The notes beneath the pieces were generated by a model that was given only the letters and a program-made list of their open reading frames with translations, searched no databases and was not told the DNA's origin. A stretch of DNA of 64,000 bases from a bacterium (lineage in GTDB: Bacteria > UBA8248). The DNA is taken from positions 1,280,001 through 1,344,000 of the forward strand of contig OZ241326.1 in NCBI GenBank assembly GCA_965199855.1. The letters are read 5' to 3'. The translations under genes were made by a program, and so were the position numbers. Below are positions 42,018 to 47,962 of the stretch, in pieces. Each line of letters starts with the position of its first letter. The stretch's first letter is position 1.

Positions 42018-42923
42018 ATGCTTCCCGCGCGATTCCTCCTCGCCCCGCTTCTCTTGCTCCTGGCGGGCGTCATCGGGAGTTTTCCCGGCGCCGGCGTCCC
42101 GGACGCATCCGCCCAGCCCCGGGAGGCCGGTATGAAAATATCGGGCTTTGACGGCGCGGCGCTCGTTCGCGTGCCGCCGGGCCGGTTCGTCATGGGCAGC
42201 GAAGCCGGCGACAGAGACGAGCGGCCGCCCGTCAGGGTCTTCGTCTCCGGCTTCTGGATCGACAGGACCGAGGCGACGGCGGAGCGCTTCGCCCGCTTCG
42301 CCGCGCGGACGGGCTACCGCACGACGGCCGAGAAGCGCGGGTGGTCGTGGACGTGGGACGCCTCCCTGAAGGACGGCAGGGGCGGCTGGCGCAAGACGAG
42401 GGGGGCGAGCTGGCGAAGCCCGGAGGGGCCGGGGTCGAGCTGGCGGACGCCGCCCGGACGGCCCGTCTCCCACGCGAGCTGGCCCGACGCCGAAGCCTAT
42501 TGCGGGTGGGCGGGCAGGCGCCTGCCCACCGAGGCGGAATGGGAGCGCGCGGCGCGCGGAGACGACGGTCGGCGCTACCCCTGGGGGTCGCGGAAGGAGG
42601 CGCGGCGCGCCAACCTGAAGGGGGGCGGGGACGGATTTCCGGGCGTCGCGCCCGTGGGCCGCTTCCCGCGGGGGGCGAGCCCCTTCGGCGCGCTCGACAT
42701 GGCGGGCAACCTCTGGGAGTGGACGGCCGACCGCTACGCCTCCCGCGCGTATCGAAGCATGGCGAGGCGCGACCCCCACGGCCCGGCGAAAGGGAAAACG
42801 CGGGTGGTGCGCGGCGCCTCCTGGGGCAGCCCCCTCGCCTGGGCGGCGGCGCACAACCGCTATCACCGCCCGCCGCGCTACACAAACAACAAACTCGGCT
42901 TCCGCTGCGCGTCGGGACTTTAA
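42018..42923 (+). CDS. Secreted SUMF1/FGE-domain protein, lacking catalytic cysteines
   Basis: [40 protein letters not shown]; N-terminal signal-like segment. Confidence 0.88.
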
Positions 42924-43386: not shown

Positions 43387-44361
43387 TCAATTCGCGGGAA
43401 CGGGCGGAACCACCAGCACGCCGTGGGGGCCGCTGCCCACGCGGATTCTGCGGATGTTGCGGTGCCTGCGGGCGTCCATGACGAACACCTCTCTCGAATC
43501 GCGGTTCGTCACGTAGGCGAGCGCGCCGTCGGGCGTGAAGGCGATGAGGTCGGGGCGGACGCCCTGCTTCACGCGGGCGACGCGCTTTTGCTCGGGCAGG
43601 GCGAACACCGAGACGGCGTTTCGGTGCGGCAGGGTGACGTAGAGAAATTTCCCGTCCGGCGTGATGAGGGCGTCGTGCGGCTCGCCGGAGAGCCTGACGG
43701 CGCGCTCGATTTCGAGGGTGGCGAGATTCACGACGCTGTAGGAATGCCGCTCGCCGTTCATCACGTAGAGCCGCTCGCCGCCGCGCGTCACGTCGATGCC
43801 CTCGATGTAGTGGCCCGCCTCTATCTGCTTGATCGGCCTGCCCGCTTCGAGATCGACGACGGAGACGTCCTCGCTCAGCTCGTTGGCGACGAAGGCGCGG
43901 CGACCGTCCGGGCCGAGCTTGATGTTCACCGGGCTGCTGCCGCCGTGCCGGATGAGGCCGACGAGCTTCCGGGCGGCGACGTCGAGAATCGTCACGTTGT
44001 CGGAGTAGGCGTTCACGAAGTAGGCGAGGCGTCCGTCGGGGGAGAAGGCGAGGTTGTAGGGGTCGCGGCCCGCGCGCACGCGGCGGAGGAGTTTCATCGT
44101 TTGGGCGTCGAACACGCGGACGAAGGCGCTGCCGTCGTTGATGACATAGACGCGGCGGCCGTCCGGGGAGAGGGCGAGGCGGTTCGCCTTGCGGCCCGCG
44201 GGAATCGTCCGGATCACCCTGTGGGAGTCGCGCGAGATGACGCTCAGGGTGCCCTCGCGCGTGTTCGTGACGAGAATTCTCTCTCCCGTCCGCCCCCCGC
44301 TCGCGCCCTCGGGGACGCCGAGCGCGAGGAGGACGAGGATGGCTGCGATCTTGCGCGTCAT
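43387..44361 (-). CDS. Secreted YVTN-family beta-propeller protein
   Basis: Signal peptide plus about 7 repeats of SPDG..(Y/F)V.N....VSV.D. Confidence 0.9.
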   Translation of the reverse strand: MTRKIAAILVLLALGVPEGASGGRTGERILVTNTREGTLSVISRDSHRVIRTIPAGRKANRLALSPDGRRVYVINDGSAFVRVFDAQTMKLLRRVRAGRDPYNLAFSPDGRLAYFVNAYSDNVTILDVAARKLVGLIRHGGSSPVNIKLGPDGRRAFVANELSEDVSVVDLEAGRPIKQIEAGHYIEGIDVTRGGERLYVMNGERHSYSVVNLATLEIERAVRLSGEPHDALITPDGKFLYVTLPHRNAVSVFALPEQKRVARVKQGVRPDLIAFTPDGALAYVTNRDSREVFVMDARRHRNIRRIRVGSGPHGVLVVPPVPAN

Positions 44362-44442
44362 GGGACGTCCGAACGGGTGATGGCGGCGTCCGCGAGCCCG
44401 GACGCCGCCTGAAAACGCTCCCGCCGCCTCGCCCGGTGCGGG

Positions 44443-44898
44443 TTATTTCGCCGCCTTGCCCTGCTCTCTCAGGAAGCGCTCCTTCGCCTTCGGGTCGAAG
44501 CGGCAACGGCACATCCTGCGGATGAGCTCCACCAAATCACGAATCTCCTCCTTTGTAAATACGTTGCCCCAGGGGGGCATGATGGGGGAGAGGTCGCTCG
44601 CCGCCCCGCCGTGGGTGATGGTGCGCGTCATGTCCGCATCGGAGAACTGCGCCATGTCCTTCCCGTCCGTGAGGTCGCGGGGGCTCACGGGCAGCTTCTT
44701 CGTGTTGTTCACCCCCTTGCCGTCTCCCTTGGGTCCATGGCACTGGACGCAGAACCAGCGAAAGTGCGCCTCCGCGCTCGTGCGCCGCGCCGCCTCGCCG
44801 GGCCTCGAGGGCAGGGGGGCGGCGCCCTCGCTCGCGCCGGCGGGGGATGCCGCCGCGAGCGTCAGGGCGAGGAGCGCGGCGAGAGCCGGCGTCCTCAT
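44443..44898 (-). CDS. Monoheme cytochrome c (NcgC-like)
   Basis: Signal peptide, CVQCHG.KG.GKGVN, PRDLTD, MPPWG, C-terminal MCRC. Confidence 0.88.
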   Translation of the reverse strand: MRTPALAALLALTLAAASPAGASEGAAPLPSRPGEAARRTSAEAHFRWFCVQCHGPKGDGKGVNNTKKLPVSPRDLTDGKDMAQFSDADMTRTITHGGAASDLSPIMPPWGNVFTKEEIRDLVELIRRMCRCRFDPKAKERFLREQGKAAK

Positions 44899-45695
44899 TT
44901 GAAGCTCGCTATGTAGGCGGCGAGGGCGATGAAGTCCGCATCGCCCAGCCTCGTGAACGCCTTGTCCCCATAAACCGGCATCCTGCCGTTGGGGTTGTAG
45001 CGGCGCGGGTTTTTCAGGAACGCGACGATGAAGTCGGGGTTCAGCCTACGCCCGGCCTCCCGGAAATGGGGCGCGCTGTGGCCGCCCACCTCGATTTTCG
45101 TCCGGTAGACCGTCTTTCGTATCGAGACCATGTGGCACGAATAGCAGGGTTGCTTCTTCTGGAACAGGACGCGCGCCCGCCGCAGCGTCCGCCGGGGGAT
45201 TTTCCTCCACCTGGGAACGACGCCCGAGGGCATTTGCGGGTCTTTGAGGCTCTCCAGCCAGGCGGCGACCTCGCGCGCCTCCTCCTTCGGGAGCGCCGGA
45301 TGCGCGTATCTCCCCCGCTTCATGGTTCCGAATAGGACGCCCCGGAACGGCTTGGGTCTTTCGAGCCAGCCCGCCAGGAAGCCGGGGCGGAACTTGCTGC
45401 CCGCGTACCAGAGCGTAGGTCCTTTTATGCGCCGGCGCGCGGGGACGGGCAGTATGCGCTCGGGCCCCTGAACCGCGTGGCAGCCGCCGCAGCCGCTTCG
45501 CCCGAAAATCGCTTCTCCCGCGCGCGTATCCGCGCCGTGCGAGGCGGCGGGCGCAAGCGCGAAGGCGAGCGCTCCCGCGAGGACGAAGGGGAGAACCGCC
45601 CCGGGCCTCGCTCCCGAAAGCGGCGCGGGGGCGATTCGCCCGCCCGCCCCCGTCCGCCGCCCTGAAGGGGAGGGATTCATTCCGCAAGGCGTCAT
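44895..45695 (-). CDS. Diheme cytochrome c (NcgB-like)
   Basis: CGGCH...KGPTLWYAGSKF...HPAL and CYSCH...AGRRL...NP...MP. Confidence 0.88.
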   Translation of the reverse strand: MTPCGMNPSPSGRRTGAGGRIAPAPLSGARPGAVLPFVLAGALAFALAPAASHGADTRAGEAIFGRSGCGGCHAVQGPERILPVPARRRIKGPTLWYAGSKFRPGFLAGWLERPKPFRGVLFGTMKRGRYAHPALPKEEAREVAAWLESLKDPQMPSGVVPRWRKIPRRTLRRARVLFQKKQPCYSCHMVSIRKTVYRTKIEVGGHSAPHFREAGRRLNPDFIVAFLKNPRRYNPNGRMPVYGDKAFTRLGDADFIALAAYIASFK

Positions 45696-46753
45696 TGGGG
45701 GAGCTCCGGCGCCCTGACTTCGGGGAGGTCGCCCGTCAGCGCGCCCATGAAGGCGATGAGATCAGCCTTTTCCCGCTTCGTGAGGCCGAGCGGCTTCATG
45801 TCCGGGTCGAGGTGGGGGTTCGGGTGTCCGCCTTTGTCGTAGAAATCCACCACCTCCTCCAGCGTGGCGAAGCGTCCGTCGTGCATGTAGGGCGCCGTCT
45901 GCGCGACGTGGCGGAGGGTGGGGGTTTTGAACCTGCCCCTGTCCCGGACGCGCTTCGTAATCCTCTCGCGCCCCGCCTCGATCGGCCGCTTGTCCATGCC
46001 GACGCCCAGGTTGTGGAACTTGTCGTCCGTGAACGGCGCGCTGAACTCGTCCGCCAGATGGCATTTCACGCAGTTTCCCTTCGAGGTGAACACCTCGAAC
46101 CCCCGAATCGCCGCCTGCGGCATCGCGGCCTCGTCTCCTCCGAACTTCCAGCGGTCGAACGGCGAATTGCCCGAGAGCAGGGTGCGCTCGAAGGAGGCGA
46201 TGGCCCGCGCGACGCGATCCAGGCTGATCTCCCCGCTGCCGAACGCCGCGCGGAAGCGCGCCCGGTATCCCCGAATCGCTCCGAGCGTCCGGATGATTTT
46301 CTCCTCGCTCGAGGCCATCTCGCCCGGGTGGAGGATGGGCCCCTTCGCCTGCTCCTCCAGGCTCCCCGCCCGCCCGTCCCAGAAGAGGAACTCGTGATAG
46401 GCGGCGTTGATGATGGTGGGCACGTTCCTGAGCGTGGACCTGCCCTGGAAGCCCGCGCCATACCGGCGCGCGTTCGAGAATCCGCGCCGCGGCACGTGGC
46501 AGGTCGCGCAGGAGACGGCGCCGTCGCCCGATATGCGCTTCTCGAAGAAGAGCAGCTTTCCGAGCTCGACCTTGGCCCGCGTCATCGGGTTGTTCTCCGG
46601 CGCGGGGGCGTCGTCGAGGCCCAGGGGCGGAGGCGGGGGGAACTCCTCCGCCTCCCGGGGCTGCGCCTGCTGCGCGCGCGCGGGCGGGGCGGCGAGGCAT
46701 CCCGCCGCCAGAGCGAGCAGAACGAGCGCGGCGATTCGCGCGGGGTGCGGCAC
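45692..46753 (-). CDS. Diheme cytochrome c peroxidase-family enzyme (MauG/bCCP superfamily)
   Basis: LGKLLFFE.R.S....SCATCH, FWDGRA..LEEQA.GP, CVKCH, FKTPTLR, TAPYMHDG. Confidence 0.92.
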   Translation of the reverse strand: MPHPARIAALVLLALAAGCLAAPPARAQQAQPREAEEFPPPPPLGLDDAPAPENNPMTRAKVELGKLLFFEKRISGDGAVSCATCHVPRRGFSNARRYGAGFQGRSTLRNVPTIINAAYHEFLFWDGRAGSLEEQAKGPILHPGEMASSEEKIIRTLGAIRGYRARFRAAFGSGEISLDRVARAIASFERTLLSGNSPFDRWKFGGDEAAMPQAAIRGFEVFTSKGNCVKCHLADEFSAPFTDDKFHNLGVGMDKRPIEAGRERITKRVRDRGRFKTPTLRHVAQTAPYMHDGRFATLEEVVDFYDKGGHPNPHLDPDMKPLGLTKREKADLIAFMGALTGDLPEVRAPELPQ

Positions 46754-46800
46754 GGCGTTTCTTTCCTCGGGGCGGACTGCCTGAAGGCGCGGCTGCGGCC

Positions 46801-47193
46801 TTACGCTCTGCTCAGCAGCTCGATGCTCACGCCGTCGGGCGCCTCGATGAAGGCGATCCTCGTCGTCGGGTTGAACTGTCGGGGCTCCATCGTGAACTTC
46901 ACGCCCTTCGCCTTGAGGTCGTCGCAGAAGCCCTGAAAATCGCCCTCGACGCGAAAGGCGAAATGATCCGTCCCCCATTGGAGGCCGCTTTTCCCGGCCG
47001 CGCGCTCGCCCGTTCTCTCGCCGCGCACCATGACCGTCGCCCCGCCCAGCCGCACCGGAATCTGCGGCGCGCCCCGCACCTCGGCGCCTTCCGCGCGCTC
47101 GCCGCCGAGCTTCTCGACGAACCAGCCGACCGAAGCCTCCGGGTCCCGGCTGATGACGTGGACGTGATCGAACGCGACTCTGGCTGAACCCAT
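46801..47193 (-). CDS. VOC/glyoxalase-family protein
   Basis: FDHVHV, DHFAF, AFIEAPDGVSIEL. Confidence 0.88.
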   Translation of the reverse strand: MGSARVAFDHVHVISRDPEASVGWFVEKLGGERAEGAEVRGAPQIPVRLGGATVMVRGERTGERAAGKSGLQWGTDHFAFRVEGDFQGFCDDLKAKGVKFTMEPRQFNPTTRIAFIEAPDGVSIELLSRA

Positions 47194-47311
47194 GCTTCGG
47201 CTCCTCTGAAATTCAGACGCTGCGGGCGGGGCCGCTCCCTCCGCCGGAAAAAACGGCGCGTCCCCCCGCCCGTTCGCTTCATGCCGCGCGGCGGGAACCT
47301 TGCGCGCCCCG

Positions 47312-47962
47312 CTATTCGCTCCAGGTCACGTCCCCGTACTCGCCCGGCCTCGGCCGCCCCGCGGCGCGGAAGCCGGCGAATTCCTCCTTGCTCCGGGCGA
47401 CGGTGCTGTTCGCCCCGTGTCCGGGGTAGAGGACGGTCGCGTCCGGCAGGGCGAACACCTTGTTCTCGATGGAGTCGAGCAGGGCGAGCAGCTGGGCGTG
47501 GCTCCAGGTTTTCCCGGGGCCGCCGGGGAAAATCGCATCCCCGCAGACGCAGTGGCCCGGGTAGTGGAACATGAGCATCCCCCTGCAGTGGCCGGGGGCG
47601 TGAATCGCCCGCAGCGCGACCTCGCCGAAGCGGACCTCGTCGCCGTCGTTGATGGCGAAGTCCGGGCTGATGCCGAATTCGGCGGCGTCCTCGGGGTGCT
47701 GGCCCAGGGGCGCGCCCGTCCGATCGCGCACCTCGTCCAGGGCGTCGATGTGATCCCCGTGGCAGTGGGTTTGCAGGATGTATTTCGGCGTCGCGCCCTC
47801 GCAGGCGGCGAGAATCGGCTCGGCGGCGTGGGAGGTGTCGATGATGACGCACTCCCGGGTCGCCTTGCAGGTCAGGACGTAGACGTTGTTGCTGTAAGGG
47901 CCGATGTTGAGCTTCCGGAGGTCGAGGGCGGGAAGCTCCACCCGTTGGTCGAATTCACCCAT
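47312..47962 (-). CDS. MBL-fold metallo-hydrolase (glyoxalase II-like)
   Basis: THCHGDH, PGH, GDAIF, YPGHG. Confidence 0.9.
   Translation of the reverse strand: MGEFDQRVELPALDLRKLNIGPYSNNVYVLTCKATRECVIIDTSHAAEPILAACEGATPKYILQTHCHGDHIDALDEVRDRTGAPLGQHPEDAAEFGISPDFAINDGDEVRFGEVALRAIHAPGHCRGMLMFHYPGHCVCGDAIFPGGPGKTWSHAQLLALLDSIENKVFALPDATVLYPGHGANSTVARSKEEFAGFRAAGRPRPGEYGDVTWSE

Follow-up and report, generated by a model that had tools for sequence, protein, structure and literature searches.

MauG offers a precedent for a dihaem enzyme that matures a propeller-containing protein, as its substrate is a precursor of methylamine dehydrogenase, which has a propeller subunit. Operons that join mtoX, SCO1/senC and mauG are a further precedent for maturation (PMC5739008). 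The class of dihaem enzymes with a His/Tyr-ligated E haem is defined by the replacement of the sixth ligand, Met, by Tyr (PMC11892367, PMC6405878); an E haem of this type is described as having a low potential, and MauG and MbnH as using H2O2 as an oxidant on protein, with poor dye-linked peroxidase activity (PMC11892367). BthA, also a His/Tyr dihaem enzyme, turns over H2O2 with an external donor (PMC6405878). A monohaem and dihaem cytochrome pair was proposed to act as carriers in NXR and bd-like oxidase clusters in a study that also suggested, for Nitrospina gracilis, H2O2 removal by a cytochrome c peroxidase, and reported that neither catalase nor SOD was found in this species (Lucker et al. 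2013, PMC3578206). The ncgBC genes of Nitrosomonas europaea have been implicated in tolerance of N-oxides and nitrite (PMC6967387), and propeller-dihaem fusions, distant relatives of hydrazine synthase beta-gamma, are reported to be widespread (PMC12758564). Here we describe a locus with features of several of these systems, and see about an even chance that its four exported genes encode a cytochrome-fed periplasmic peroxide reductase and a propeller partner.

The locus lies in a 64,000-nucleotide stretch of DNA (the window) from the genome of an uncultured, sponge-associated bacterium (3.04 Mb, 100% complete). A preliminary description had listed a minus-strand run of MBL-fold, VOC, peroxidase, dihaem cytochrome, monohaem cytochrome and propeller genes, and open reading frames, Pfam and NCBIfam matches bore this out. 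The exported set, all on the minus strand, comprises a MauG-type dihaem enzyme of the bCcP/MauG superfamily (45692..46753, 353 amino acids, PF03150), an NcgB-like dihaem cytochrome c (44895..45695, 266 amino acids, two matches to Pfam Cytochrom_C), an NcgC-like monohaem cytochrome c (44443..44898, 151 amino acids, Pfam Cytochrome_CBB3) and a YVTN beta-propeller (43387..44361, 324 amino acids, five matches to the TIGR02276 repeat). The DNA carries both of the ATGA stop/start overlaps reported earlier on this strand, between the peroxidase and dihaem genes (45692..45695) and between the dihaem and monohaem genes (44895..44898). Of 24 orthologous loci, 9 preserve the first of these, 13 have instead a spacer of about 60-80 nt and the other 2 showed no start codon. 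The second is kept in 21 of the 24, the other 3 having a 7-nt gap. The monohaem and propeller genes are separated by 81 nt, with a comparable gap in all 24 loci.

Upstream of the peroxidase, the VOC/glyoxalase-I-like protein (46801-47193, minus strand, PF00903) and the MBL-fold protein (47312-47962, minus strand, PF00753) are encoded by co-directional neighbours that are conserved in synteny. The VOC gene ends 47 nt before the peroxidase start; its 130-residue product has no signal peptide, scores 34 bits against the glyox_I cut-off of 120 and probably has a separate cytoplasmic function. The MBL-fold protein (216 amino acids, no signal peptide) resembles hydroxyacylglutathione hydrolases and reaches 84 bits on GSH_gloB (cut-off, 201). 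On the other side, an exported FGE-sulfatase-domain protein is encoded on the plus strand (42018..42923; PF03781, 199 bits), convergent with the propeller gene and kept beside it throughout the clade. This family includes NirV (PMC1262709), and copies of it also adjoin the cytochrome pair in locus L075, while in L176 and L182 they lie close to relatives of the peroxidase.

The longest reading frame of the peroxidase (45692-46978) runs into the VOC gene. The likely start codon, picked by eye, is the GTG at 46753, which is preceded by GAGGAAAG and followed by a signal-like hydrophobic stretch. Both haem motifs (CATCH and CVKCH) are invariant, and so are Trp125 between the haems, Gln135, Glu145 and Met146 across 121 homologues; Gln135 and Glu145 lie in the peroxidatic pocket. 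The enzyme carries the TAPYMHDG and PGEM motifs, the first and the GEM of the second having been noticed before. It lacks a distal His: where activatable bCcPs have this residue, it has Phe. The preliminary description had found no C-terminal Tyr. This was wrong because Tyr305, in the motif FYDKGG, occupies the E-haem ligand position, aligning without gaps with MauG Tyr294 and also with Met258 of N. europaea 1IQC and the DIYSEGG motif of MbnH 6E1C; it is kept in 117 of the 121 aligned homologues. Judged by these alignments, the enzyme is of the His/Tyr E-haem (MauG) type. The canonical CcpA type was rejected, with Tyr305 standing where 1IQC, Shewanella 3O5C and Paracoccus 2C1U have Met, and the residue alignments make the MauG-type assignment clearer than it was first thought to be.

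Profile searches placed the enzyme in the bCcP/MauG superfamily (PF03150, 190 bits; cut-off, 25.6) and below the thresholds for MauG proper (TIGR03791, 267.2 bits; cut-off, 443.85), MbnH (TIGR04039, 244.9 bits; cut-off, 362.85) and hydrazine_gamma (NF052341, 44.6 bits; cut-off, 625). No small-subunit gene of a mau context was present among the window's reading frames, and no MbnP partner adjoins the peroxidase, the downstream genes encoding c-type cytochromes. Against solved structures, the full-length enzyme scored 190 bits with 1IQC, 188 with 3O5C, 167 with MbnH 6E1C, 101 with MauG and 58 with BthA; for residues 262-330, MbnH (51.8 bits) and MauG (36.4) exceeded the canonical bCcPs (at most 32.5).

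The propeller has seven YVTN blades and one invariant face; in every blade, the A-B and C-D loops are invariant. Among 25 orthologues, 112 residues are invariant, and the conserved face carries three invariant loop Tyr (102, 119 and 185) and five invariant His. The window copy has no haem motif, Cys or Trp; the mature protein is free of Cys in 25/25 orthologues and of Trp in 18/25, with no Trp conserved. Since there is no Cys and no conserved Trp, a cofactor of the TTQ, CTQ, kynurenine or Cys-Tyr type on the propeller is excluded. Scores were below the cut-offs for TIGR03866, the PQQ-catabolism-associated propeller (158.2; cut-off, 287.3), hydrazine_beta (NF052340, 141.7; cut-off, 560) and TTQ_MADH_Hv (27 bits; cut-off, 454), and such propellers cross-match generically, with 111,942 library proteins at E<=0.001. 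Foldseek searches with an AF2 model (pLDDT 91.9) returned 1L0Q (E 1.4e-27) and, as the best-characterised structural relative, hydrazine synthase beta, a haem-free subunit (5C2V_B, E 1.6e-17), with NirN, NirF and cd1 nitrite reductase among the lower matches.

These features bear on an unlikely alternative, drawn by analogy, in which the dihaem protein would be a maturation enzyme that, via a bis-Fe(IV) state, oxidises residues of the propeller or a cytochrome and so generates a metal site or a protein-derived cofactor; in that case, the matured protein would have the cytochromes as redox partners. The match of Tyr305 to MauG Tyr294, the PYMH(D/N)G motif common to MauG and MbnH, the scores of residues 262-330 and the loss of the distal His all agree with it, as do the Tyr and His residues on the propeller's conserved face and the recurrence of propeller genes after related enzymes (YVTN type in 4/79 loci; NHL/ScyE-like in 5/79, within one clade). 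The composition of the propeller argues otherwise, making MauG-style installation of a known cofactor there, as was suggested earlier, improbable. A gene for a small cofactor-bearing subunit is likewise missing from the reading frames, and translational coupling to two cytochromes here, together with a cupredoxin gene at the corresponding place in relatives, fits an enzyme that is fed with electrons better than a sub-stoichiometric maturase.

The dihaem cytochrome starts at ATG 45695, the sole other in-frame start being ATG 45680; its first haem (CGGCH) is accompanied by an invariant His132 and its second (CYSCH) by an invariant Met239-Pro240. The monohaem cytochrome contains CVQCHG, MPPWG and a C-terminal Cys130-x-Cys132, followed by a tail (residues 134-151) that is specific to its clade. 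We compared both with six loci, recognised by gene content alone, in which a two-domain multicopper oxidase gene, a dihaem gene, a monohaem gene and a NirK-like gene follow one another, the cytochromes lying between the oxidase and the NirK-like gene in 6/6. In tblastn searches, identity to the NcgB-position proteins was 26-31% (E 1e-14 to 1e-18) and to the NcgC-position proteins 38-46% (E 1e-20 to 1e-31), and in searches of the window genome the best hits were reciprocal. A profile of the dihaem family alignment (A1) matched the NcgB-position proteins over positions 11-235 of 235 (E 1e-33 to 1e-41), and the monohaem signature CxQCHG...MPPWG...CxC is common to all 67 aligned members, including 6/6 nirK-linked ones. 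The NcgB- and NcgC-position genes abut as well, sharing one base in L218 and L219.

This sequence evidence shows true, though distant, homology between the window cytochromes and those at the NcgB/NcgC positions. Orthology, the stronger form of the likeness first proposed, was rejected: in a tree, the nirK-linked rows formed a separate, long-branched clade (100% support), whereas the window fell in a clade of 13 rows (99% support), and both nirK and ncgA, already said to be missing from the locus, are absent from the window, and a search of the complete genome (3.04 Mb) found neither. The family is large, with 276 stretches of the dihaem family matched in species-representative genomes, and the dihaem and monohaem genes form a widespread, portable pair that is found next to NirK, bd-like oxidases (15 of 50 distant loci examined) or nothing obvious. 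No solved relative of the dihaem cytochrome emerged (Foldseek best E 5e-3; phmmer best E 1e-4), and the monohaem cytochrome best matched a Kuenenia dihaem protein (6H5L_B, E 1.3e-7).

Kinship with NcgBC, linked with N-oxide and nitrite tolerance in N. europaea (PMC6967387), raises the possibility of a nitrogen-oxide enzyme, in which the dihaem protein and the propeller would be an unfused hydrazine-synthase-like gamma/beta pair, or a substitute for NirK, with the cytochromes supplying electrons for the reduction or detoxification of NO, nitrite or hydroxylamine. The structural match of the propeller to 5C2V_B, the spread of fusions distantly akin to hydrazine synthase beta-gamma (PMC12758564) and the conserved NirV-family neighbour are consistent with this. 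We nevertheless regard it as distinctly improbable: the enzyme scores 44.6 bits on the hydrazine_gamma model against 267 on that of MauG and retains the complete set of peroxidase residues, the propeller lies under the hydrazine_beta cut-off in a fold family that matches generically, the cytochrome pair stands outside the nirK-linked clade and NirK is missing from the genome.

The same four genes occur together in 31 loci (24/28 of a first set and 7 more, some of the 31 being cut by contig ends). It is present in 35/41 other genomes of the window's GTDB family and in 0/10 genomes of the phylum's other families. As all of these loci belong to one GTDB family, synteny alone is weak evidence for shared function; collinearity within the family also extends beyond the set, from ribD to a CoA transferase, so adjacency may partly reflect descent. 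None of the three findings that would speak against the preliminary description (unrelated cytochromes, an enzyme clustering with CcpA, an unconserved gene set) was made.

Taken further, the same pattern would mean that only the peroxidase and cytochromes form a unit, with the propeller, MBL-fold, VOC and FGE-like genes neighbours by shared descent, which seems to us quite unlikely. The confinement to one family, collinearity across unrelated genes and the similar gap before the propeller gene in all 24 loci are as it would predict, and outside the family the cytochrome pair occurs with a propeller or peroxidase in 0/50 loci. Against it, the propeller is retained at 53-56% identity in L051, L053 and L054, where collinearity past the FGE-like gene is lost, and related peroxidases have gained propeller neighbours in two other phyla. 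A scan of the region for terminator-like sites on the minus strand, which is a weak test, showed none.

Relatives of the peroxidase in other phyla, scored in 71 loci with a called two-haem reading frame, have an amicyanin-like cupredoxin gene directly downstream in 13/71 (invariant His129, Cys167, His170 and Met173), such that another kind of carrier fills the same position; a c-type cytochrome adjoins the peroxidase in 9/71. Some cupredoxin-linked relatives have a propeller too. The Acidobacteriota propeller beside a related peroxidase in L113 scored 280.6 on TIGR03866.

Under the peroxide-reductase reading, the respiratory chain would deliver electrons to the two cytochromes, monohaem (NcgC-like) and dihaem (NcgB-like), and these would pass them to the His/Tyr-ligated E haem of the enzyme; from there they would reach the five-coordinate P haem through Trp125, and the P haem would reduce H2O2 or a related small oxidant. 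The cytochrome pair would be a portable carrier cassette whose family elsewhere accompanies NirK with a two-domain copper oxidase, or bd-like oxidases, and the propeller a partner or substrate-binding protein. Peroxide handling, one of the options raised earlier, fits best; what we infer is the course of the electrons, the identity of the substrate as peroxide and any contact with the propeller. The intact peroxidatic pocket, the gene overlaps, the carrier-like cytochrome family and the alternative carrier gene in relatives speak for this reading, and so does the genome, in which searches for catalase and KatG found none, there is one haem-copper oxidase, and the window peroxidase is the sole standard-length CCP_MauG gene. 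The activity of BthA on H2O2 and the peroxidase role suggested for N. gracilis (Lucker et al. 2013) also favour it. The low-potential His/Tyr E haem and the behaviour of MauG and MbnH weigh on the other side, as does the lack of the peroxidase/dihaem overlap in 13/24 loci; the reading also leaves the propeller without a role, although it is as conserved as the enzyme.

A bolder proposal, which we hold to be a long shot, is that the Trp- and Cys-free propeller joins the MauG-type protein in an unfused catalytic complex like hydrazine synthase beta-gamma, in which the haem, high-valent or reduced, would act on a small molecule at the invariant propeller face, with the NcgBC-type cassette supplying or removing electrons. 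If true, catalase-less, sponge-associated bacteria would contain a new class of periplasmic enzyme.

Set beside the described systems, the window enzyme shares with MauG 3L4M, MbnH 6E1C and BthA 6NX0 two CXXCH haems, an inter-haem Trp and PYMH(D/N)G, and with MauG-type enzymes the E-haem Tyr and the missing distal His. It falls below both equivalog cut-offs, has neither mau genes nor MbnP alongside and is coupled instead with two c-type cytochromes; over its full length, canonical bCcPs (190 bits) score as high as MbnH (167), and both score above MauG (101). Those canonical enzymes (1IQC, S. oneidensis CcpA 3O5C and P. pantotrophus 2C1U), its best full-length sequence matches, have the same peroxidatic pocket residues and use small periplasmic electron donors, but carry PYFH(D/S)G and ligate the E haem by Met (Met258 in 1IQC, counted from the alignment) where the window enzyme has Tyr. 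The ncgABC-nirK cluster of N. europaea has the same order, a dihaem gene and then an abutting monohaem gene, with reciprocal significant homology and a common monohaem signature; identities of just 26-31% and 38-46%, a clade of its own and the lack of NcgA and NirK set the window pair apart. The NXR and bd-like oxidase clusters of Nitrospina, Nitrospira and Kuenenia (Lucker et al. 2013) also have a monohaem and dihaem pair, a likeness of haem content and bd-like context, whereas a homologue of the bd-like oxidases is absent from the window genome. Hydrazine synthase beta/gamma and its fused non-anammox relatives, as described in PMC12758564, likewise combine a haem-free seven-bladed YVTN propeller with a cytochrome-fed dihaem protein of the bCcP/MauG fold; in the window there is no alpha subunit, the genes are separate with two cytochromes in between and the dihaem protein keeps its peroxidase residues.

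Comparison of the open reading frames with Pfam and NCBIfam bore out the proposed six-gene run on the minus strand at 43387–47962. It consists of an MBL-fold protein (47312–47962; gloB-like at 84 bits, below cut-off), a glyoxalase-I-like VOC protein (46801–47193), a CCP_MauG dihaem enzyme (45692–46753; PF03150, 190 bits), a dihaem cytochrome c (44895–45695; CGGCH and CYSCH), a monohaem cytochrome c (44443–44898; CVQCH) and a YVTN propeller (43387–44361; five matches to the TIGR02276 repeat). A conserved neighbour on the plus strand, an exported FGE-sulfatase-domain protein (42018–42923), is convergent with the propeller. Both ATGA overlaps of the preliminary description, peroxidase/dihaem and dihaem/monohaem, were found in the DNA. 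The longest peroxidase reading frame overlaps the VOC gene; the more likely start, picked by eye from the sequence, is a GTG at 46753, with GAGGAAAG before it and a hydrophobic signal-like stretch after it, giving 353 aa. The dihaem gene has two in-frame starts ahead of its hydrophobic segment, the overlapping ATG and another ATG 15 nt downstream. The MBL and VOC proteins have N-termini without signal-like features (by eye) and look like a cytoplasmic glyoxalase-like pair. A promoter and terminator scan, which carries little information in an organism of 70% GC, returned no promoter-like sites; its five terminator-like sites all lie on the plus strand, and chance alone would give 4.5.

The four-gene set of peroxidase, cytochrome pair and propeller recurs beyond the window, within its GTDB family. 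A search with the dihaem protein returned 28 loci. In 24 of them (L001–L023 and L026) the peroxidase lies directly upstream, and 22 of these 24 continue into the monohaem gene and the propeller, whereas L022 and L026 are truncated by contig ends. Seven more loci (L049–L055) carry the same run, with dihaem identities of 51–63%. The carriers' record titles name uncultured Nitrospinota, Nitrospinaceae or Tectomicrobia. Of 41 other genomes in the family, 35 (from 7 of its 9 genera) contained the dihaem gene when the window protein served as query (E ≤ 1e-20), against none of 10 genomes from the phylum's three other families. The dihaem and monohaem genes overlap by 4 nt in 21 of the 24 orthologous loci and are separated by 7 nt in the remaining three. 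The peroxidase and dihaem genes overlap in nine, the most distant ones among them, and lie about 60–80 nt apart in 13; no start codon was found in the other two. The conserved block runs from ribD (opposite strand) through MBL, VOC, peroxidase, dihaem, monohaem and propeller genes to the convergent FGE-sulfatase-domain gene. Since collinearity extends in closer relatives as far as a cupin and a CoA transferase, synteny alone is weak evidence for a common function. Sponge metagenome runs, those listed being without RNA, contained 56–78% of the stretch's sampled words. The FGE-sulfatase-domain family recurs in Nitrospirota, adjoining the cytochrome pair or peroxidase relatives: it occurs about 2–3 kb past the peroxidase relatives of L176 and L182, and in two copies beside the cytochrome pair of L075 (2404–3321 and 4795–5484). 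Part of one report places NirV of nirK operons in this family (PMC1262709).

The two cytochromes had been likened to NcgB and NcgC. We searched a profile of 15 dihaem homologues against 401 genomes of the order surrounding one betaproteobacterial match, and nine contained full-length matches (E 1e-33 to 1e-41). All six loci that were fetched (L218–L223) had the same order of reading frames: about 351 aa, a dihaem protein of 230–245 aa, a monohaem protein of 117–163 aa, and about 314–327 aa. The flanks of L218, L220 and L222 were scanned: the first frame encodes a two-domain multicopper oxidase and the last a NirK-like protein (TIGR02376 score of 162–198 bits, short of the 296-bit cut-off). L218 also has a divergent Rrf2/NsrR-like regulator, matching the NsrR that we take to lie upstream of ncgABC-nirK clusters. 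These comparison clusters were recognized by gene content, L219, L221 and L223 being assigned from reading-frame size and cytochrome matches only. Their layout matches that of the ncgABC-nirK cluster in the relevant passages of two publications (PMC3603346, PMC6967387).

Against the nirK-linked proteins, the window's dihaem cytochrome showed 26–31% identity (E 1e-14 to 1e-18) and the monohaem cytochrome 38–46% (E 1e-20 to 1e-31), and reverse searches of the window's genome returned the window genes as best matches. The cytochrome motif of the preliminary description proved to be a family signature common to 67 aligned monohaem members, with CxQCHG, G58/G60/G62/N64, P73, M82, G97-G98, M107-P108 and C130 invariant or nearly so and C132 kept in 61; the six nirK-linked proteins have all signature residues. 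In a tree of 71 rows, a chosen subset of 12 of the 31 loci carrying the four-gene set together with distant and nirK-linked loci, the nirK-linked proteins grouped apart, in a long-branched clade (support 100), and the window fell inside a 13-row clade drawn entirely from peroxidase contexts (support 99), nearest to Nitrospirota and to rows whose loci encode a 935-aa protein. The homology to NcgB and NcgC thus stood, whereas placement with the nirK-linked proteins did not, and from their sequences we conclude that the window pair belongs to the same family but a different subfamily. The C-terminal Cys-x-Cys of the NcgC-like family (residues 130–132; Cys130 in 67 of 67) lies apart from the haem motif and may serve as a redox-active disulfide or bind a metal; we know of no described role for it.

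The profile matched 276 stretches in species-representative genomes, of which the best 80 were kept. Fifty distant loci (L057–L106) were examined, and in 47 a monohaem homologue follows the dihaem gene; two of the other three end at contig ends. No peroxidase or propeller match was found in any of the 50. Neighbour clustering and Pfam placed 15 loci from Alpha- and Gammaproteobacteria in a context with a cytochrome-bd-like subunit I and a 327-aa cytochrome c, the whole four-gene unit often being tandemly repeated. In six loci the neighbours are instead a 530-aa protein assigned to no family and a 935-aa protein containing a single cytochrome c domain; 13 Deltaproteobacteria/Thermodesulfobacteriota loci, as well as Nitrospirota loci, have plain housekeeping neighbours. 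The NcgB/NcgC-type cytochromes are shown here to be part of a widespread two-gene carrier cassette whose terminal enzyme varies, being NirK together with a copper oxidase in some loci, a bd-like oxidase in others and a MauG-type peroxidase in the window. Such variety suggests a generic role in electron shuttling, one that is testable outside slow-growing nitrifiers; in the part of the literature we draw on, the role of ncgABC is described as incompletely elucidated (PMC6967387).

Several details of these loci are recorded here. The tandem unit, present twice inside 12 kb in L077, L081, L088, L095, L104 and other Alpha- and Gammaproteobacteria MAGs, comprises the bd-like oxidase subunit (613 aa, weak PF01654 match), the 327-aa cytochrome c and both small cytochromes. 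The 530-aa and 935-aa proteins precede the pair in the Alphaproteobacteria MAGs L024 (3228–13263), L058, L062, L065 and L066, and in L024 the pair is followed by a trihaem cytochrome of 766 aa that includes an ethylbenzene-dehydrogenase-like haem b domain. In the window's genome, a minus-strand region (G000:C1:1699614-1701161) gives several successive weak matches to the dihaem cytochrome (22–30% identity), and its product is probably a multi-domain c-type cytochrome. No solved relative of the dihaem protein was found by PDB sequence search or Foldseek, where its model (pLDDT 76) returned nothing at E ≤ 0.001.

The peroxidase's resemblance to MauG and MbnH held at the residues that matter. Full-length PDB scores favoured the Nitrosomonas europaea enzyme 1IQC (190 bits) and Shewanella CcpA (188) over MbnH 6E1C (167), MauG (101) and BthA (58), but the diagnostic residues contradict this ranking: canonical enzymes have PYFH(D/S)G ... 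EAVxxM, whereas the window enzyme, like MbnH, has PYMHDG ... VVDFYDKGG. Residues 262–330 alone placed MbnH first (51.8 bits), ahead of MauG (36.4) and 1IQC (32.5). Tyr305 aligns without gaps to MauG residue 294, and Met258 of 1IQC (own count) falls in the same column. Phe occupies what is presumably the distal His position of activatable enzymes, and Trp125, Gln135 and Glu145 are invariant in the aligned homologues. In the sections concerned, two publications separate canonical from MauG-type enzymes by His-Met versus His-Tyr ligation of the haem and give Tyr294 of MauG and Tyr463 of BthA as ligands (PMC11892367, PMC6405878); for MbnH we follow the general His-Tyr statement on MauG-type enzymes in the first of these (PMC11892367). 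The MauG-type motif was present in all 120 closest homologues listed, with Tyr in 117 of 121 aligned rows, and a profile scan gave at least 608 confirmed genomic stretches, which suggests that dihaem peroxidases with a His/Tyr haem form a large branch. The only other CCP_MauG match in the genome, a partial domain match (G000:C1:2800597-2802561, minus; L030:1090-3054), was considered as a propeller fusion and rejected: it encodes a RoxA-like protein of 654 aa that gave no YVTN match.

Of the confirmed peroxidase stretches 80 were kept, and 79 loci lie outside the clade that carries the four-gene set. The cytochrome pair was not found in these 79, bar one weak monohaem match. A YVTN propeller follows the peroxidase in four, all Acidobacteriota. 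In 14, the gene immediately downstream, identified by clustering, encodes a protein of about 234 aa with no haem motif, invariant His129, Cys167, His170 and Met173, a C-terminal CarboxypepD_reg domain and weak profile matches to blue-copper proteins and amicyanin; we read it as an amicyanin-like cupredoxin. MbnP was ruled out for this neighbour, given no NCBIfam match and invariant residues that fit a type-1 copper site. The His and Cys-x2-His-x2-Met pattern spans several phyla (L113:5943-6656, L145:4517-5221, L185:6012-6413 and 11 further loci). The next gene encodes the YVTN propeller in four loci and a chemotaxis receptor in four. The latter, from Alphaproteobacteria, a Vibrio and an Alteromonadaceae MAG, is a methyl-accepting chemotaxis protein; it and the cupredoxin may together act as a taxis sensor for peroxide or redox state. 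An NHL/ScyE-like propeller is found instead in five Planctomycetota loci, and a 428-aa monohaem protein in five loci. Among 71 loci with a called two-haem reading frame, a cupredoxin lay within 1.5 kb on the same strand in 13, a c-type cytochrome within that distance in nine, and none of the scored neighbour types in 40. That His/Tyr enzymes are often wired to their own cupredoxin or cytochrome suggests that many are fed catalysts, not protein maturases. The Nitrospinaceae single-cell genome L179 has a MauG-type paralogue of the window's peroxidase (42% identity), with three small monohaem cytochromes around it (150–171 aa) that make up a separate family. Deep nodes of the peroxidase tree had a support of 34, and we therefore make no claim of an ancestral propeller association.

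Protein maturation by the dihaem enzyme is kept alive by the His/Tyr haem and by the recurrence of propellers beside related enzymes, but the proposed MauG-style cofactor on the window propeller is excluded in its Trp- or Cys-derived form: across 25 orthologues the mature propeller has no Cys, 18 have no Trp and no Trp is conserved. Complex prediction for peroxidase and propeller scored 0.00 in two runs without control pairs, a result that weighs neither for nor against contact. The propeller model (AF2, pLDDT 91.9) has 28 strands in seven blades; Foldseek returned an archaeal S-layer YVTN domain (E 1.4e-27), then hydrazine synthase beta (E 1.6e-17), NirN, NirF and cd1 nitrite reductase. The orthologues share 112 invariant residues, including His139, His229, His246, His300, His313, Tyr102, Tyr119 and Tyr185. 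On our reading of the repeat register, the invariant residues occupy the loops that follow strand A and precede strand D in each blade, together a single face around the central channel. ESM Atlas returned only generic YVTN and lactonase clusters, and a HMMER list was dominated by giant multi-propeller YVTN proteins, so that fused forms and orthologues could not be read from it. A literature search limited to the names MauG and YVTN found no description pairing the two. The propeller's role is explained by none of the readings considered here.

The window's genome is a single 3.04-Mb contig rated 100% complete, with one haem-copper oxidase. The described lack of ncgA and nirK extends to the whole genome, where NirK, an NcgA-like oxidase and a bd-like oxidase were not found; nitrogen-oxide chemistry as the module's function would rest on analogies only. 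Catalase and KatG were likewise not found in the genome. Several lines favour a cytochrome-fed peroxidase that reduces peroxide: the close coupling between the enzyme and its carriers, the replacement of the cytochromes by a cupredoxin in peroxidase relatives, the carrier-like contexts of the pair in other genomes and the lack of catalases. In an aerobe without catalase or KatG, the module may be the principal periplasmic defence against peroxide. Its enzyme scores under the equivalog cut-offs of both MauG and MbnH. A cytochrome-fed peroxidase is consistent with the account, in part of one report, of BthA as a His/Tyr dihaem enzyme that turns over H2O2 (PMC6405878), and with a passage suggesting that a cytochrome c peroxidase removes H2O2 in Nitrospina gracilis (PMC3578206).
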